The translations under genes were made by a program, and so were the position numbers. From a virus (Duplodnaviria > Heunggongvirae > Uroviricota > Caudoviricetes), in the IMG/VR virus record IMGVR_UViG_3300047202_000060: DNA of 64,000 nt; one strand, given 5' to 3'. Positions 55,102 to 63,485 of the stretch are shown here, in pieces. How positions within the stretch are numbered: the first letter of the stretch is position 1; every line of letters starts with the position of its first letter. The notes under the pieces were generated by a model. That model saw only the letters and a list, made by a program, of their open reading frames with translations, ran no database searches and was not told the origin of the DNA.

Positions 55102-55556
55102 AGCGTTATTGTCATAGTTTTTGTTTCTTTTTCGTAGTCCGCTTCAACACTCATCGAACACTTTTCTATTATGCTCTTTTTCAATTCTTTTAAAAATAAG
55201 TCTGGTCGGTCAACTTTGATATTTTTACCCATTAATGAATACCACTTTTCATTGTCTAAAGACCACTCTAACCGAGAATGAGAAATAACTTCCATTGTAA
55301 TAGGAATACTTGTTGATTGTGCTGATTCTTTCTTGTTCAATCCGACTATTAAAACAGAAATACATTTCTTACATATTGCTTTCATATCTTCTGTAAGAAA
55401 ATCTGGTTTACTTCCACAATTTGAACATTTCTGTTCTCCGACCCACTCATCTGGCGGCAAGGGAAATAATTTCATCTTAAACTGTTTAATAGGTTTGAAC
55501 ATAACATTTGAAACAGTTCCTAAATCTGAGTCGGCTATTCTGAGTTCAATCCTCAT
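55098..55556 (-). CDS. Hypothetical protein with Zn finger
   Basis: CSNCG...CKKC. Confidence 0.45.
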   Translation of the reverse strand: MRIELRIADSDLGTVSNVMFKPIKQFKMKLFPLPPDEWVGEQKCSNCGSKPDFLTEDMKAICKKCISVLIVGLNKKESAQSTSIPITMEVISHSRLEWSLDNEKWYSLMGKNIKVDRPDLFLKELKKSIIEKCSMSVEADYEKETKTMTITL

Positions 55557-55867
55557 TAAACAAGCCTCAAATTCTTAGTAAATTGTTTTGTCTCTTCGGT
55601 TTGGCGGAATCCTAAACATGTCATTGTTCCCGCTGGAACTTCAGTTAAGCCAGCATCGAGAATATATCTTAAACAATGATGTGTATGGAATATCTTCATA
55701 AATGTTTCATGATCTGCTTTGAGAACTATAGCTCGTCCAACTATCTTATAGTCGTCTGCAAGCAACATTGCAACGTGACTAACCTGAGCGGCAATCTTGC
55801 CCTTACTCATACCTAGACTTTCATCAATGATATATACGAACGTTATAGATAGGTCAACTTTTCTCAT
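55556..55867 (-). CDS. pth2: Peptidyl-tRNA hydrolase, archaeal/eukaryotic Pth2 type
   Basis: LGMSKGKIAAQVSHVA, AIVLKA, ILDAGLTEVPAGTMTCLG. Confidence 0.9.
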   Translation of the reverse strand: MRKVDLSITFVYIIDESLGMSKGKIAAQVSHVAMLLADDYKIVGRAIVLKADHETFMKIFHTHHCLRYILDAGLTEVPAGTMTCLGFRQTEETKQFTKNLRLV

Positions 55868-60611: not shown

Positions 60612-60692
60612 AATTCCTCTTTTTTCTTGTTCAGAGGGAAAGTTAAAAGAAGTATTTAAAACTTTTGCCTGAATTTATCAAAAACAGTTTAG

Positions 60693-60768
60693 AGCGAGTG
60701 GAAGGATTTGAACCTTCGATTAGCGGTGTTGCGGACCGCTCCGTTTAACCAGACTTCAGCACACTCGC
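60693..60768 (-). tRNA. tRNA-Cys(GCA), C33 variant
   Basis: Acceptor GCGAGTG/CACTCGC, U73; anticodon arm GCGGT-CCGCAAC-ACCGC. Confidence 0.9.
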
Positions 60769-60778
60769 ACAAAGTTAA

Positions 60779-60867
60779 TGGCGGTAGGTGAGAGATTCGA
60801 ACTCTCGGTTCCACATGGGAACGCTGGTTTAGCAAACCAGTACCTTAAACCACTCAGTCAACCTACC
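60779..60867 (-). tRNA. tRNA-Ser(GCT)
   Basis: CTGGT-TTGCTAA-ACCAG, long variable arm, G73, encoded CCA. Confidence 0.95.
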
Positions 60868-60873
60868 ATAAAG

Positions 60874-60962
60874 TGGCGACAGGGAGAGGATTTGAACCTC
60901 TATCTCACATAAGGAGACACCGTTTTCAGGACGGGTGCAATACCTGATTCTGCCACCCTGCC
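60874..60962 (-). tRNA. tRNA-Ser(TGA), C33 variant
   Basis: Loop CCTGAAA, long variable arm, G73, encoded CCA. Confidence 0.85.
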
Positions 60963-61105
60963 ACAAACGGACAAAAAATTTAGGCTGACGATTTGGAATA
61001 ACATCTGGACTGACTGATACCCAAGTCATGATAACTAGGAAGAGTTTTGAATATCATATCAATCACTTGTTCTAAGTATAGTATCAAACACCTATATAAA
61101 CCTTT

Positions 61106-61179
61106 TGGTTGCGGGAGACAGAGTTAAACTGTCGCTATTGGATTATGAGTCCAATTGACTGTCGTTATCTTATCCCGCA
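61106..61179 (-). tRNA. tRNA-Met/Ile2(CAT) with atypical D-arm and T-loop
   Basis: TTGGA-CTCATAA-TCCAA; acceptor TGCGGGA/TCCCGCA; encoded CCA; weak D-arm. Confidence 0.7.
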
Positions 61180-61551
61180 TCACTCGGACCAAATTATTTT
61201 CCAATTACTTTTTGCTTTACATAAGTCTTTTGCTTTATGAAGACTATTACAGACCATACATCGAACCTCAAGATCGTTAGTTTCTCTTCTTCCAGCCAGA
61301 ATATCCAGATAGAATTGTTTTTGGCATCGATTCTTTCTATTCATCTCTTGATTCCCGCCGCCGTTGATGTGGTTGATTTCTAATATTGAATATTCTATAC
61401 ATCCACAATTGACACATTTCCCGCCAAGCAAATCAATGACTTTCTTTCTGATTTTATCATAATATCTTTTATGGGAAACCCTATTTCTCTTAGCCCAATC
61501 TCTTTGAAATTTTCTTTGTTTATTCGCATCTTTGTAAGGCATATTTATCAT
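61180..61551 (-). CDS. HNH endonuclease (family A, copy 3) inserted in the tRNA array
   Basis: LLGGKCVNCG...LEINHINGGG...EVRCMVCNSLHK; its stop abuts tRNA-Met. Confidence 0.75.
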   Translation of the reverse strand: MINMPYKDANKQRKFQRDWAKRNRVSHKRYYDKIRKKVIDLLGGKCVNCGCIEYSILEINHINGGGNQEMNRKNRCQKQFYLDILAGRRETNDLEVRCMVCNSLHKAKDLCKAKSNWKIIWSE

Positions 61552-61563
61552 ATAACTATAATG

Positions 61564-61595
61564 GGTTCGACATATTTAAGTCTTTCTGTCGAACC
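61564..61595. repeat. 9-bp inverted repeat enclosing the TATA box of the HNH gene
   Basis: GGTTCGACA-(14 nt, tatttaagtctttc)-TGTCGAACC. Confidence 0.7.
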
Positions 61596-61603
61596 TTAGT
61601 TAA

Positions 61604-61757
61604 TACGGGCGGGGAGACTTGCACTCCCACAGCAACTAAGCAAGGGGTTTGCTCTTTCTGGGAATTGAATCTTAGCCATCCAGACATGGATTTGAGCCAT
61701 CCAGATTTAAGCCATCCAGACTTACGTTCTCTGGGTTTTCTGATTCCCTACGCCCGC
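61604..61757 (-). tRNA. tRNA-Leu gene with BHB introns at 29/30 and 36/37 and three alternative anticodon micro-exons (TAA 61707-61713, CAA 61692-61698, AAG 61671-61677)
   Basis: Acceptor GCGGGCG/CGCCCGT, A73, D-arm, Leu-type variable arm, T-arm; joining the exons gives the stem GAGGG/CCCTT around a CT-NNN-AC loop. Confidence 0.8.
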
Positions 61758-61877
61758 ATACCCTAACCACGACCCGTGTTGCTCGACACACTCATCGCGT
61801 GAAGAATCGTGGTATAACCTTATTATATGACAATACTACTATATAAACCTTTCTATAGAAGTAACATGCTAAAATAT

Positions 61878-61951
61878 TGGCGGATATGGTGGGAATTGAA
61901 CCCGCGCTATCACCGTGACAGGATGACGTGCTACCACTACACTACATATCC
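61878..61951 (-). tRNA. tRNA-Asp(GTC)
   Basis: TCATC-CTGTCAC-GGTGA, G73, CCA. Confidence 0.9.
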
Positions 61952-61956
61952 ATTAC

Positions 61957-62031
61957 TGGTCCTACTGGACTGAGTTGCACAGTCATCATTCGGTTTACAG
62001 CCGAAGGTCCTATCTGTTAGACGACAGCAGG
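61957..62031 (-). tRNA. tRNA-Tyr(GTA), archaeal type
   Basis: C1-G72, A73, short variable loop, TTCGG-CTGTAAA-CCGAA; G55. Confidence 0.9.
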
Positions 62032-62039
62032 GCAATTGA

Positions 62040-62114
62040 TGGTGGGGCATCACCGAGTCGCACGGTGTCCATGCGGGTCCAAACCGCAGATGCACCCTGT
62101 CACACCTATGCCCC
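62040..62114 (-). tRNA. tRNA-Pro(TGG)
   Basis: TGCGG-TTTGGAC-CCGCA; A37; G55; CCA. Confidence 0.9.
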
Positions 62115-62118
62115 ATAG

Positions 62119-62195
62119 TGGTGGTCCCGCCTAGAGTTGAACTAGGTCTCAGACTTTGTAAGAGTCTGGTGCTAATTCCGTTACACTACGAGACC
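62119..62195 (-). tRNA. tRNA-Val(TAC)
   Basis: AGACT-CTTACAA-AGTCT; CCA. Confidence 0.9.
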
Positions 62196-62197
62196 GA

Positions 62198-62272
62198 TGG
62201 TGGGGTAGTAGAGGATTCGAACCTCTGTTTCTGGTTTTGGAGACCAGAGCCTTCCTATTGACTGAACACCCC
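62198..62272 (-). tRNA. tRNA-Trp(CCA)
   Basis: CTGGT-CTCCAAA-ACCAG; one-nt acceptor bulge; CCA. Confidence 0.85.
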
Positions 62273-62273
62273 A

Positions 62274-62349
62274 TGGCGGAGATGTAAGGAGTCGAACCCT
62301 AACCTTTCAGCTTCGAAGGCTGATATGCTATCCATTACACCACATCTCC
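62274..62349 (-). tRNA. tRNA-Arg(TCG)
   Basis: TCAGC-CTTCGAA-GCTGA; CCA. Confidence 0.95.
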
Positions 62350-62352
62350 AAA

Positions 62353-62425
62353 CGCCGCCCGTAGGAATCGAACCTACACCTTCCGCCTTAACAGGGCGGT
62401 ACACTCACCATTATGCTAGAGCGGC
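62353..62425 (-). tRNA. tRNA-Asn(GTT)
   Basis: CCGCC-CTGTTAA-GGCGG; G73. Confidence 0.95.
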
Positions 62426-62428
62426 AAG

Positions 62429-62501
62429 TGCCGACTAGCGGAGTCGAACCGCTGTCATACCCGTGTTTCAGACGGGCGAACTCCCGTTGTTCTAAGTCGG
62501 C
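62429..62501 (-). tRNA. tRNA-Phe(GAA)
   Basis: CCCGT-CTGAAAC-ACGGG; A73. Confidence 0.9.
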
Positions 62502-62505
62502 ATAG

Positions 62506-62576
62506 TTGGTAAGGCGGGAGTTGGACCCGCTCTAATGGCTTCACAGACCATTGTGCTACTGTTACACTACATACCG
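62506..62576 (-). tRNA. tRNA-His(GTG) with imperfect acceptor stem
   Basis: ATGGT-CTGTGAA-GCCAT; two acceptor mismatches; C55. Confidence 0.7.
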
Positions 62577-62578
62577 AA

Positions 62579-62652
62579 AGGACCATACGGGATTTGAACC
62601 CGTGTTTGCGGATTAAAGGTCCGCCGCACTAACCTGACTATGCTAATGGTCC
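62579..62652 (-). tRNA. tRNA-Lys(TTT), C33 variant
   Basis: GCGGA-CCTTTAA-TCCGC. Confidence 0.9.
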
Positions 62653-62657
62653 ACGAG

Positions 62658-62730
62658 TGCACCTATTGGGATTTGAACCCAAATTCTCGGATTAAGGGTC
62701 CGATGTACTGCCTGATTATACGATAGGTGC
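62658..62730 (-). tRNA. tRNA-Lys(CTT), C33 variant
   Basis: TCGGA-CCCTTAA-TCCGA. Confidence 0.9.
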
Positions 62731-62737
62731 TCATAGA

Positions 62738-62810
62738 TGGGCGATGGTGGAGTTGAACCACCTTCAACAGACTTATAAGGCTCTGTATGCTACCGTTACA
62801 TTATTCGCCC
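62738..62810 (-). tRNA. tRNA-Ile(TAT) with a bulged G in the anticodon stem
   Basis: CAGA(G)C-CTTATAA-GTCTG; acceptor GGGCGAA/ATCGCCC, A73. Confidence 0.75.
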
Positions 62811-62815
62811 GCTAT

Positions 62816-62890
62816 TGGTGCGGATGTCGGGAATTGCACCCGAACCACAACCTTGGAAAGGTCATTATGCAACTATTACACTTCATCCGC
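62816..62890 (-). tRNA. tRNA-Gly(TCC)
   Basis: TGACC-TTTCCAA-GGTTG; G55; CCA. Confidence 0.9.
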
Positions 62891-62895
62891 ATTAC

Positions 62896-62970
62896 TGGTG
62901 CAAGAGGCGGGAATCGGACCCACGCCTTAGACTCGGCAAGTCCACATGCTACCACTAACACCACTCTTGC
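62896..62970 (-). tRNA. tRNA-Gly(GCC)
   Basis: TGGAC-TTGCCGA-GTCTA; C55; CCA. Confidence 0.9.
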
Positions 62971-62971
62971 A

Positions 62972-63048
62972 TGGTGGAGTAAGAGGGATTTGAACCCTCA
63001 CCTTCTGTTTGCAAAACAGATGTGCTACCAGATTGACACTAAAACCCC
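62972..63048 (-). tRNA. tRNA-Ala(TGC)
   Basis: TCTGT-TTTGCAA-ACAGA; G3:U70 identity pair; CCA. Confidence 0.9.
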
Positions 63049-63052
63049 ATAG

Positions 63053-63183
63053 TGGTCCCGTGGGGAGTTGAACCCCAACTCACAGGTTTCTCCGTCTGGT
63101 AAACTATTTTTATTAGTTTACCACCTGAGAGCCTTTGAGCGACTTGAAAGCCTGTGCTCCTTGTCCGTTTAGATTACGGGACC
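63053..63183 (-). tRNA. tRNA-Glu with BHB intron(s): TTC via one 57-nt intron (63088-63144), or CTC via 19-nt (63135-63153) plus 38-nt (63088-63125) introns
   Basis: Stem ACAGG/CCTGT; a second AGGCTCTCA element lies inside the intron; BHB helices CTTT or CTCT with GGAG, and GAGC/GCTC. Confidence 0.85.
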
Positions 63184-63186
63184 GAA

Positions 63187-63258
63187 AGCCGCTACCAGAA
63201 GTTGCATCTGGACCCAGAGTTTACAAAACTCTCATGCTACTGTTAACACTATAGCGGC
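63187..63258 (-). tRNA. tRNA-Thr(TGT)
   Basis: AGAGT-TTTGTAA-ACTCT; U73; G55. Confidence 0.9.
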
Positions 63259-63259
63259 A

Positions 63260-63335
63260 TGGCACAAGTGGAAGGATTCGAACCCTCATCTCTCACGTTA
63301 GAACCGTGATGCTCTATCCATTAAGCTACACCTGT
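63260..63335 (-). tRNA. tRNA-Arg(TCT)
   Basis: TCACG-GTTCTAA-CGTGA (G32); CCA. Confidence 0.9.
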
Positions 63336-63370
63336 ATTTGTGAAGTCAATTGAATGCAGTTGAAATCAAT

Positions 63371-63485
63371 TGGTAGTGGGTGGCAGATTCGAACTGCCCC
63401 TACAAGCTATCTCCATTGGACAATATCAGAGGCTTAGACCCCAATTTCAAAGGCTTGTCTCCTTATCCAAATAGATTAACCCACT
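63371..63485 (-). tRNA. tRNA-Gln with BHB intron(s): TTG via one 38-nt intron (63409-63446), or CTG via 21-nt (63434-63454) plus 17-nt (63409-63425) introns
   Basis: A1-U72, stem CAAGC/GCTTG; a second GCCTCTGA element lies inside the intron; strict BHB at 29/30 (AGAC/GTCT); CCA. Confidence 0.88.

Follow-up and report, generated by a model that had tools for sequence, protein, structure and literature searches.

Candidate multi-anticodon tRNA genes with predicted alternative cis-splicing in the tRNA array of an uncultivated tailed virus

Leu, Glu and Gln genes with repeated anticodon cassettes

We analysed a 64,000-nt stretch of the IMG/VR virus record IMGVR_UViG_3300047202_000060 (hereafter the window; the whole viral genome is 140 kb) and focused on three unusual transfer RNA (tRNA) genes, for Leu, Glu and Gln, located in an array of tRNA genes on its minus strand. 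ARAGORN called 18 and Rfam 20 ordinary tRNA genes in this region (minus strand, 60692-63335), and gaps were left at the Leu, Glu and Gln loci. Each of the three amino acids is served by a single gene, which contains three (Leu) or two (Glu and Gln) copies of a 7-9 nt anticodon micro-exon, here called a cassette, and all the extra anticodons are synonymous. Reading of the sequence upheld the original observation that the sole Leu, Glu and Gln genes of the array each contain extra anticodon copies, all of them synonymous. No second Leu, Glu or Gln gene was found in the array or in the 5.4 kb past the window end (L088), and the latter segment contained no further tRNA of any kind. The tRNA calls also agreed with the earlier statement that Lys (ttt, ctt), Gly (tcc, gcc), Ser (gct, tga) and Arg (tcg, tct) isoacceptors are encoded by separate genes. 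The array and the parts of the three genes, each contiguous within 115-154 nt, are as follows.

60692-63485 (-): tRNA array, about 25 genes covering all 20 amino acids (ARAGORN, Rfam and reading of gaps)
61604-61757 (-): tRNA-Leu gene
61729-61757 (-): Leu exon 1, positions 1-29, ending CCCAG-AG, in which CCAG (the "docking" site) forms the 5′ side of the central helix
61707-61713 (-): Leu cassette 1, GGCT-TAA (anticodon UAA), with the selector CTGG-AT just before it (61714-61719)
61692-61698 (-): Leu cassette 2, GGCT-CAA (anticodon CAA), preceded by the selector CTGG-AT
61671-61677 (-): Leu cassette 3, GGCT-AAG (anticodon AAG), preceded by the selector CTGG-AT
61649-61670 (-): final Leu intron segment, ending GAGC-AA, a shared 3′ strand able to pair with the GCTN of any cassette
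61604-61648 (-): Leu exon 3, from A37 to A73, with long variable arm, T arm and acceptor
63053-63183 (-): tRNA-Glu gene
63154-63183 (-): Glu exon 1
63145-63153 (-): Glu cassette 1, AGGCT-TTC-A (anticodon UUC)
63135-63144 (-): Glu spacer, making with cassette 1 a predicted 19-nt 5′ intron (GAGC/GCTC as central and GGCT/AGTC as inner helix, outer helix lacking)
63126-63134 (-): Glu cassette 2, AGGCT-CTC-A (anticodon CUC)
63088-63125 (-): Glu 38-nt 3′ intron with a hairpin of 9-10 bp, ending GGAG-AA, the shared 3′ strand for CTTT/CTCT
63053-63087 (-): Glu exon 3
63371-63485 (-): tRNA-Gln gene
63455-63485 (-): Gln exon 1, ending AGAC-AA, in which AGAC forms the 5′ side of the 5′ intron's central helix
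63447-63454 (-): Gln cassette 1, GCC-T-TTG-A (anticodon UUG)
63434-63446 (-): Gln spacer, making with cassette 1 a predicted 21-nt intron at 29/30 with a strict motif AGG/CCT, AGAC/GTCT, CCT/GGG
63426-63433 (-): Gln cassette 2, GCC-T-CTG-A (anticodon CUG)
63409-63425 (-): Gln 17-nt 3′ intron, ending GGAG-AT, the shared 3′ strand for CTTT/CTCT
63371-63408 (-): Gln exon 3, with CCA encoded

In the Leu gene, three CTGGAT-GGCT-NNN-A units (TAA, CAA and AAG), set apart by short spacers, stand between exon 1, which ends in CCCAGAG, and a 22-nt segment that leads to exon 3. The Gln gene runs from exon 1 through GCCTTTGA, a 13-nt spacer, GCCTCTGA and 17 nt to exon 3, and the Glu gene from exon 1 through AGGCTTTCA, a 10-nt spacer, AGGCTCTCA and 38 nt to exon 3. 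With ARAGORN set to permit introns, the two genes were called as Glu(ttc) and Gln(ttg), each interrupted at the canonical position, by 57 nt in Glu and by 38 nt in Gln; Leu was not called. Leu codon counts in 34 open reading frames (ORFs) of the window were, in falling order, CTT 343, TTA 296, TTG 214, CTA 131, CTC 88 and CTG 47, and the first three of these codons are exactly complementary to the Leu anticodons AAG, UAA and CAA.

Two further features accompany these genes. The hairpin of the Glu 3′ intron (63095-63119 (-); 9-10 bp, GGTAAACTA ... TAGTTTACC, with an A-rich loop) exceeds what a splice motif needs. The region upstream of the Leu gene (61758-61860 (-)) contains a TATA box of archaeal type (AAAGGTTTATATA) as well as a leader, about 80 nt long, with a CCACGA...TCGTGG stem; this same TATA box recurs at 61090-61105 and in related viruses.

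Predicted splice junctions and their products

The genes were scanned for bulge-helix-bulge (BHB) motifs, in which a 4-bp helix (H) lies between two 3-nt bulges, with an outer helix (h) and an inner helix (h′) beyond them, and cuts were placed after the second bulge nucleotide (definition according to PMC4090602). In Gln, the canonical 38-nt intron gave an h6 H4 h′6 motif, the 21-nt intron at 29/30 an h3 H4 h′3 motif and the 17-nt intron an h5 H4 h′3 motif. All three were among the top scores of the gene, and only one off-target motif (h2 H4 h′5, 25 nt) matched the score of the 21-nt intron. The inner helix of the latter, given originally as CCTT/GGGG, had to be corrected to CCT/GGG, one G being shared with the central helix. 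For Glu, the motifs were h6 H4 h′3 (57 nt), h0 H4 h′4 (19 nt; the relaxed HBh′ form) and h3 H4 h′2 (38 nt), the last one followed by a 9-bp hairpin. The 5′ junction of Leu has a CCAG/CTGG core with bulges AG|A and AT|G, perfect in all three copies, and short flanks (h1, h′ 1-4). The geometry of a 4-bp helix with 3-nt bulges claimed for every cassette boundary therefore stands for all the Gln and Glu junctions and for the 5′ junctions of the three Leu cassettes, while the 3′ junction of Leu is weaker. Introns at 29/30 and 30/31 have been reported in archaeal tRNA genes (PMC4090602, PMC3239211), and relaxed hBH/BHL and HBh′ motifs are cut by (alpha-beta)2 and epsilon2 enzymes (PMC3239211).

We then removed the predicted introns in silico. 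Every product from the window was recognized by ARAGORN as a full-length tRNA (74-81 nt) with the expected anticodon. Results were the same for all the molecules tested, i.e., nine from the window (two Gln, two Glu and five Leu, the last comprising three cassette products and two hypothetical hybrids discussed below) and ten from relatives, so that a canonical cloverleaf was obtained for every cassette. A cassette-blind recursive motif enumerator, coupled to ARAGORN, recovered both isoacceptors with little noise for Gln (UUG and CUG) and Glu (UUC and CUC) of the window. Among the relatives described below, it did so for Gln of L001 and L020 and for Lys of L020 (UUU and CUU).

In the chance test the spacer alone was shuffled, and the BHB skipping cassette 1 was required to hit one of a few in-register cut pairs. 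P values obtained for the window were 0.0012 for Gln, 0.0005 for Glu and 0.0009, 0.005 and 0.0002 for Leu copies 1-3; those for relatives were 0.0003 (L001 Gln), <2e-5 (L009 Gln) and 0.0018 (L020 Lys). The earlier argument that three genes sharing this logic are hard to explain by chance is thus supported by in-register BHBs that beat the spacer shuffles. A loose count of anticodon-like heptamers was also significant, but it is too permissive to carry weight alone. In the fold that skips cassette 1 of Gln, this cassette is paired inside the inner helix (CCT/GGG, CCCTT/AAGGG or CCCTTGA/TTAAGGG across viruses). Cassette 1 accordingly has two competing partners, which are the makings of a switch. 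A further candidate, a local anticodon stem formed by the CCATG that follows Leu cassette 2, was rejected, as this sequence is altered in relatives.

Cassettes in related viruses and the surrounding array

Relatives were found through the family B DNA polymerase (PolB), and their sequences span different samples and pipelines (JGI, Logan, ENA). Close relatives with syntenic arrays are L001 (equal in sequence to L008, L002 and L003; PolB identity of 87%), L009 (85%) and L090 (85%); a distant array-bearing relative, L020, shares 48% PolB identity. For Leu, four distinct sequences from at least seven assemblies were compared. The three units are letter-identical, and all differences lie in the spacers and in the loops of the variable and T arms. 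Columns with variation amounted to 0 of 45 in the units, 14 of 37 in the spacers and 3 of 74 in the exons (Fisher P = 2.8e-6 for units vs. spacers). Homogenisation of the repeats was ruled out for Leu, because the three anticodons stay distinct in every genome.

Both Gln cassettes are present in the window, L001, L009 and L020, and the truncated L090 copy retains cassette 2. Within the Gln "intron" as defined by ARAGORN, the invariant columns spell GCC.CTGA, i.e., cassette 2. Three viruses share AGAC/GTCT as the central helix of the 5′ intron, and L001 has AATC/GGTT there, with both strands changed. In L001, T33 is replaced by C33 in both cassettes together with an A to G change in the shared 3′ strand, and the anticodon stem of Gln covaries at 26:44, 28:42 and 29:41. 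The Gln gene of L020 has a plain hairpin as its 29/30 intron, then two cassettes that each bring a copy of the inner-helix strand and share a single docking element, GAAC-AGGG-AA|A. The comparative tests proposed with the original prediction thus all came out in its favor: the extra anticodons are conserved and synonymous, the spacers drift while the cassettes do not, and changes occur on both sides of the Gln BHB helices.

Cassette genes and separate genes replace each other among these viruses. The window has separate Lys(ttt) and Lys(ctt) genes, and L020 has one Lys gene with the cassettes ACCTTTA and ACCCTTA, a canonical 27-nt route and a strict 15-nt BHB (h4 H4 h′2) removing cassette 1; both resulting loops are identical to those of the two window Lys genes. 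Conversely, L001, L009 and L090 carry separate Glu(ttc) and Glu(ctc) genes at the position of the single two-cassette gene of the window. The exons of the window Glu gene match neither Glu gene of the close relatives and its T arm is that of L020 Glu, so that an origin by fusion of the relatives' two genes was rejected; it looks like a gene replacement. A Ser gene of L020 (L020:3216-3354 (+)) contains three cassettes, GCT, CGA and GGA, across both serine codon families, and the alternating CACC/GGTG/CACC strands between them form strict BHBs; ARAGORN reported only GCT with a 51-nt intron. The cassette design would serve at least five amino acids in this virus group (Leu, Glu, Gln, Lys and Ser), and its interchange with separate genes is the strongest hint of function.

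Scans of IMG/VR by the Leu repeat pattern, by the pattern of the Gln 5′ exon, by PolB and by the PolB alignment yielded no array-bearing virus, and the sole related complete virus there (G001) has zero tRNAs. A scan of GTDB genomes with the Gln pattern gave no match. The array is absent from eight contigs with 68-85% PolB identity (L004-L007, L017, L091, L114 and L115), which makes it a variable island. An aRF1-like gene adjoining Leu in the relatives was used as a lead as well, and it led to two contigs only, both without the array. In L001 this region (L001:14555-15124 (-)) holds two small ORFs with eRF1 domains, as it does in L003 and L008. They stand in place of a 123-aa Cys-rich ORF of the window, located between Met and Leu (61180-61551 (-)), which has a weak CPxCG zinc-finger match.

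Other interruptions were seen in L090 (L090:16700-17740 and L090:15140-15745 (-)), where inserts of about 230-450 bp interrupt Arg(TCT), Thr(TGT), Arg(TCG) and Trp in or beside the anticodon loop. At least those in Arg-TCT, Thr and Arg-TCG hold a promoter-like TATA box and a small Cys-rich/HNH-like ORF, and the anticodon-stem strands in the two halves of Arg(TCT) correspond to types from different relatives. This suggests endonuclease-driven insertion and recombination, not a spliced intron.

The window is AT-rich (GC content of 33-39%, rising to 43% in the last 4 kb). Comparison of 36 ORFs with Pfam identified a family B DNA polymerase, RadA/Rad51, NUDIX and several HNH proteins, and a weak match only to the terminase large subunit. 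PolB relatives at 46-47% identity are labelled Bathyarchaeia/Bathyarchaeota by their sources. These features fit an uncultivated tailed virus of a Thermoproteota-type archaeon; a link to Bathyarchaeia as hosts is what we infer from PolB similarity only. The virus-encoded tRNA cluster is syntenic in related viruses and has terminase-like, PolB, RadA and HNH genes as neighbors. Another translation-related viral gene, for a peptidyl-tRNA hydrolase (PTH2; 55556-55867 (-), L088 gene table), lies near the array. All 20 amino acids are covered by the array, as reading of the gaps added, besides the Leu, Glu and Gln cassette genes, the following three genes, read by eye and with Rfam.

62032-62121 (-): tRNA-Pro(TGG)
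62738-62810 (-): tRNA-Ile(TAT)
63187-63258 (-): tRNA-Thr(TGT)

Several of the array tRNAs have unusual features. The anticodon arm of Ile(TAT) (62738-62810) is abnormal, with a perfect 5-bp stem ACAGA/TCTGT around 10 nt (G-C-CTTATAA-G), equivalent to one more C-G pair plus a bulged G; in relatives the loop has the normal 7 nt. This gene was missed by ARAGORN or given a 3-nt "intron" and scored 43 bits in Rfam. Both Lys tRNAs (62579-62730 (-); loops CCTTTAA and CCCTTAA) have C33 instead of the near-universal U33, as do the Gln cassettes of L001 (L001:16730-16846 (-)) and L020 and the Lys cassettes of L020. Many tRNAs, including Leu, Thr, Gly(tcc) and Pro, combine TGCAA T loops (G55) with D loops that do not have the usual GG, i.e., elbow contacts unusual for archaeal-type tRNAs.

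Proposed alternative cis-splicing, its rivals and its relation to known systems

The comparative evidence is best explained by one gene yielding several tRNAs through alternative cis-splicing, a process that we infer at the RNA level and to which we assign a probability of roughly 65%. Each would be an intron-bearing tRNA gene of archaeal type, with shared 5′ and 3′ exons enclosing two or three tandem versions of the anticodon piece (from about 29/30 to 36/37). In the sequence, the selector preceding each cassette is complementary to the single docking strand that ends exon 1 (AGAC/GTCT in Gln, GAGC/GCTC in Glu and CCAG/CTGG in Leu), and any cassette can pair, through loop positions 31/32-34/35, with one shared strand ahead of exon 3, which is GGAG in the Gln and Glu genes and GAGC in the Leu gene. 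Either pairing creates a 4-bp helix between two 3-nt bulges, and cutting after the second bulge nucleotide followed by joining would give a 5-bp anticodon stem and a 7-nt loop. A host EndA of the broad-specificity type and RtcB ligase would act on whichever of the mutually exclusive folds the precursor adopts, the skipping fold locking the first cassette into the inner helix of the 5′ intron. One isoacceptor would then be released per transcript, namely Gln UUG or CUG, Glu UUC or CUC, and Leu UAA, CAA or AAG, a compact supply of isoacceptors matching the viral codon usage. The isoacceptor ratio may, as originally proposed, be governed by the competition between folds. That all the cassettes are in use, with mutually exclusive splicing chosen by docking and selector strands and performed by host EndA/RtcB for at least five amino acids in place of separate isoacceptor genes, we regard as a reasonably probable account. 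A bolder extension concerns Leu, in which the G of cassette 3 might be attached to the TA of cassette 1 or the CA of cassette 2 through cassette-to-cassette BHBs (GGCT/GGCT with TGGAT/ATTCA). If the resulting UAG and CAG hybrids are also made, one gene would serve all six Leu codons.

Although the prediction of alternative splicing passed all the comparative tests, several observations weigh against it, among them the relaxed Leu 3′ motif, a Glu gene unique to this virus and the atypical AAG anticodon. At the Leu 3′ junction, where the bulges are NN|A and AA|A, GCTN/GAGC forms 4, 4 and 3 pairs and is flanked by an outer helix of 1-2 bp and an inner helix of 0-2 bp. It is a relaxed hBH/BHL-type form only, the cleavage of which is plausible, and the enumerator gave zero Leu products at the strict threshold. 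The two-cassette Glu gene occurs only in the window virus and has no homolog in the relatives. A34 anticodons are generally absent from archaea (PMC3239211), yet the odd AAG becomes intelligible through its exact pairing with the commonest Leu codon of the virus. In the Gln gene of L009, which represents an intermediate, the UUG route has a C-A mismatch within its central helix. Look-alikes of cassettes also occur, since L020 Glu has a second TTC-like heptamer without a BHB route, probably the 3′ strand of a palindromic BHB. No EndA or RtcB homologs were detected among the 36 window ORFs scanned against Pfam. Finally, constrained folding with ViennaRNA gave no support, as the BHB conformers lay 2-18 kcal/mol above the ensemble, with Leu the worst. 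Since canonical-intron BHBs likewise lay 3-10 kcal/mol above it, thermodynamic ranking is not discriminating.

The look-alike in L020 Glu also speaks for the most serious competing explanation, in which these are ordinary multi-intron tRNA genes spliced constantly to one isoacceptor, and the extra copies are relics of duplication or structural parts of introns, e.g., a BHB competitor or chaperone. In line with this, a single canonical intron suffices for Glu and Gln in ARAGORN, and the second Glu isoacceptor is a separate gene in relatives, so a cassette is in principle not needed. Relics, however, should decay, and the cassettes are conserved like exons while the spacers vary. Furthermore, the copies differ at the anticodon and remain synonymous in every relative, the in-register BHBs removing cassette 1 are far beyond chance and covary, and no Leu tRNA can be obtained without choosing a cassette. 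We therefore consider constant splicing unlikely, at odds of roughly one in five.

Far less probable is a role of the repeated loops as RNA decoys or regulators in the precursor or the excised intron, soaking up, for instance, a host anticodon nuclease, modification enzyme or synthetase. Each Leu cassette does lie in its own hairpin (5 bp, 7-nt loop, TGGAT / ATYYR), and viral tRNA clusters are often tied to host defences that target tRNA. Such a role leaves unexplained both the in-register cuts that rebuild a perfect anticodon arm for every cassette and the replacement of cassette genes by separate genes between relatives. Switching at the DNA level, by slippage or recombination at direct repeats of 15-21 bp that would yield single-cassette genome variants, seems if anything a little more remote. 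The cassettes are tandem direct repeats and the array, which contains HNH genes and shows gene replacement from one relative to another, is a recombination hot spot, but the full cassette set was present in all of the at least seven assemblies and no single-cassette allele was seen. Deletion would moreover be irreversible and the BHB motifs needless. An assembly artefact would be conceivable for short tandem repeats in metagenome assemblies; its probability is negligible here, given that the architecture is identical in independent assemblies from different samples and pipelines and differs in the spacers only.

The literature searched contained no description of one tRNA gene giving several anticodons by cis-splicing; most subscription journals were outside its reach, so this is absence of evidence only. 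The closest known system is the tri-split tRNA-Gly of Caldivirga maquilingensis, in which the alternative pieces cover about positions 26-37 and come from separate transcripts (Fujishima et al., 2009, reviewed in PMC4390854, PMC4090602). As there, the cassette genes combine a constant 5′ quarter, a constant 3′ half and short alternative pieces with synonymous anticodons, with BHB joints that in Caldivirga are processed by the archaeal splicing endonuclease and ligase. The tri-split tRNA is, however, assembled in trans from separate genes through complementary leaders, whereas here all pieces are in one gene of 115-154 nt, so the choice must come from alternative folding of a single transcript. 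The original analogy to tri-split tRNAs moved into cis is apt in this sense. Split and tri-split tRNAs are defined by separate loci and separate transcription, and the pieces found here are contiguous between the 5′ strand of the acceptor and its 3′ partner; although alike in working, the cassette genes are not members of that class. They also include a class II tRNA (Leu), and no split example was noted among class II tRNAs (PMC4390854). The split tRNA-Glu(UUC) and tRNA-Glu(CUC) of Nanoarchaeum equitans have one 3′ half in common (PMC4390854). A constant part is thus common to two synonymous isoacceptors, the same UUC/CUC pair as in the window Glu gene, but there whole 5′ halves are trans-spliced from separate loci, with no micro-exon and no choice within a transcript.

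Multiple-intron tRNA genes with non-canonical BHB introns are known from Thermoproteales, Korarchaeum and ARMAN (Marck and Grosjean, 2003; Sugahara 2007/2008, reviewed in PMC4090602; PMC3239211). Two introns per gene, at 28/29-30/31 and at or next to 37/38, with strict or relaxed BHBs, are a common trait, but in those genes each intron is removed constitutively to give one tRNA, and a second anticodon inside such introns was not reported in the literature searched. In logic, the cassettes would resemble a system of animal mRNA. In the exon 6 cluster of Drosophila Dscam one docking sequence pairs with one of several selectors, so that exactly one variant is included. The likeness is one of logic only, as Dscam splicing is spliceosomal, and it implies no kinship of machinery or descent. 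Arrays of tRNA genes are found in other viruses too, such as phages T4 and T5. Halogranum tailed viruses provide a further example (PMC13532342). The present array is like them in having a near-complete virus-encoded set beside replication genes with interspersed HNH genes, and differs in that known viral arrays give each isoacceptor its own gene.

Taken as sequence evidence, BHB splicing and the tri-split logic moved into a single transcript would represent a new form of known machinery. If confirmed at the RNA level, alternative splicing would here be documented for the first time in a tRNA, with one gene giving several decoders and several tRNAs expressed from about 150 nt in a compact design. 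Standard tRNA finders would then undercount the isoacceptors of archaea and their viruses, as exemplified by ARAGORN, which misses Leu wholly and reports one anticodon each for Glu and Gln. It would also mean that a protein-only archaeal splicing system, which reads only the shape of a small RNA, can support regulated exon choice through competing folds, and intron-bearing, split and tri-split tRNAs would be linked into one evolutionary series.

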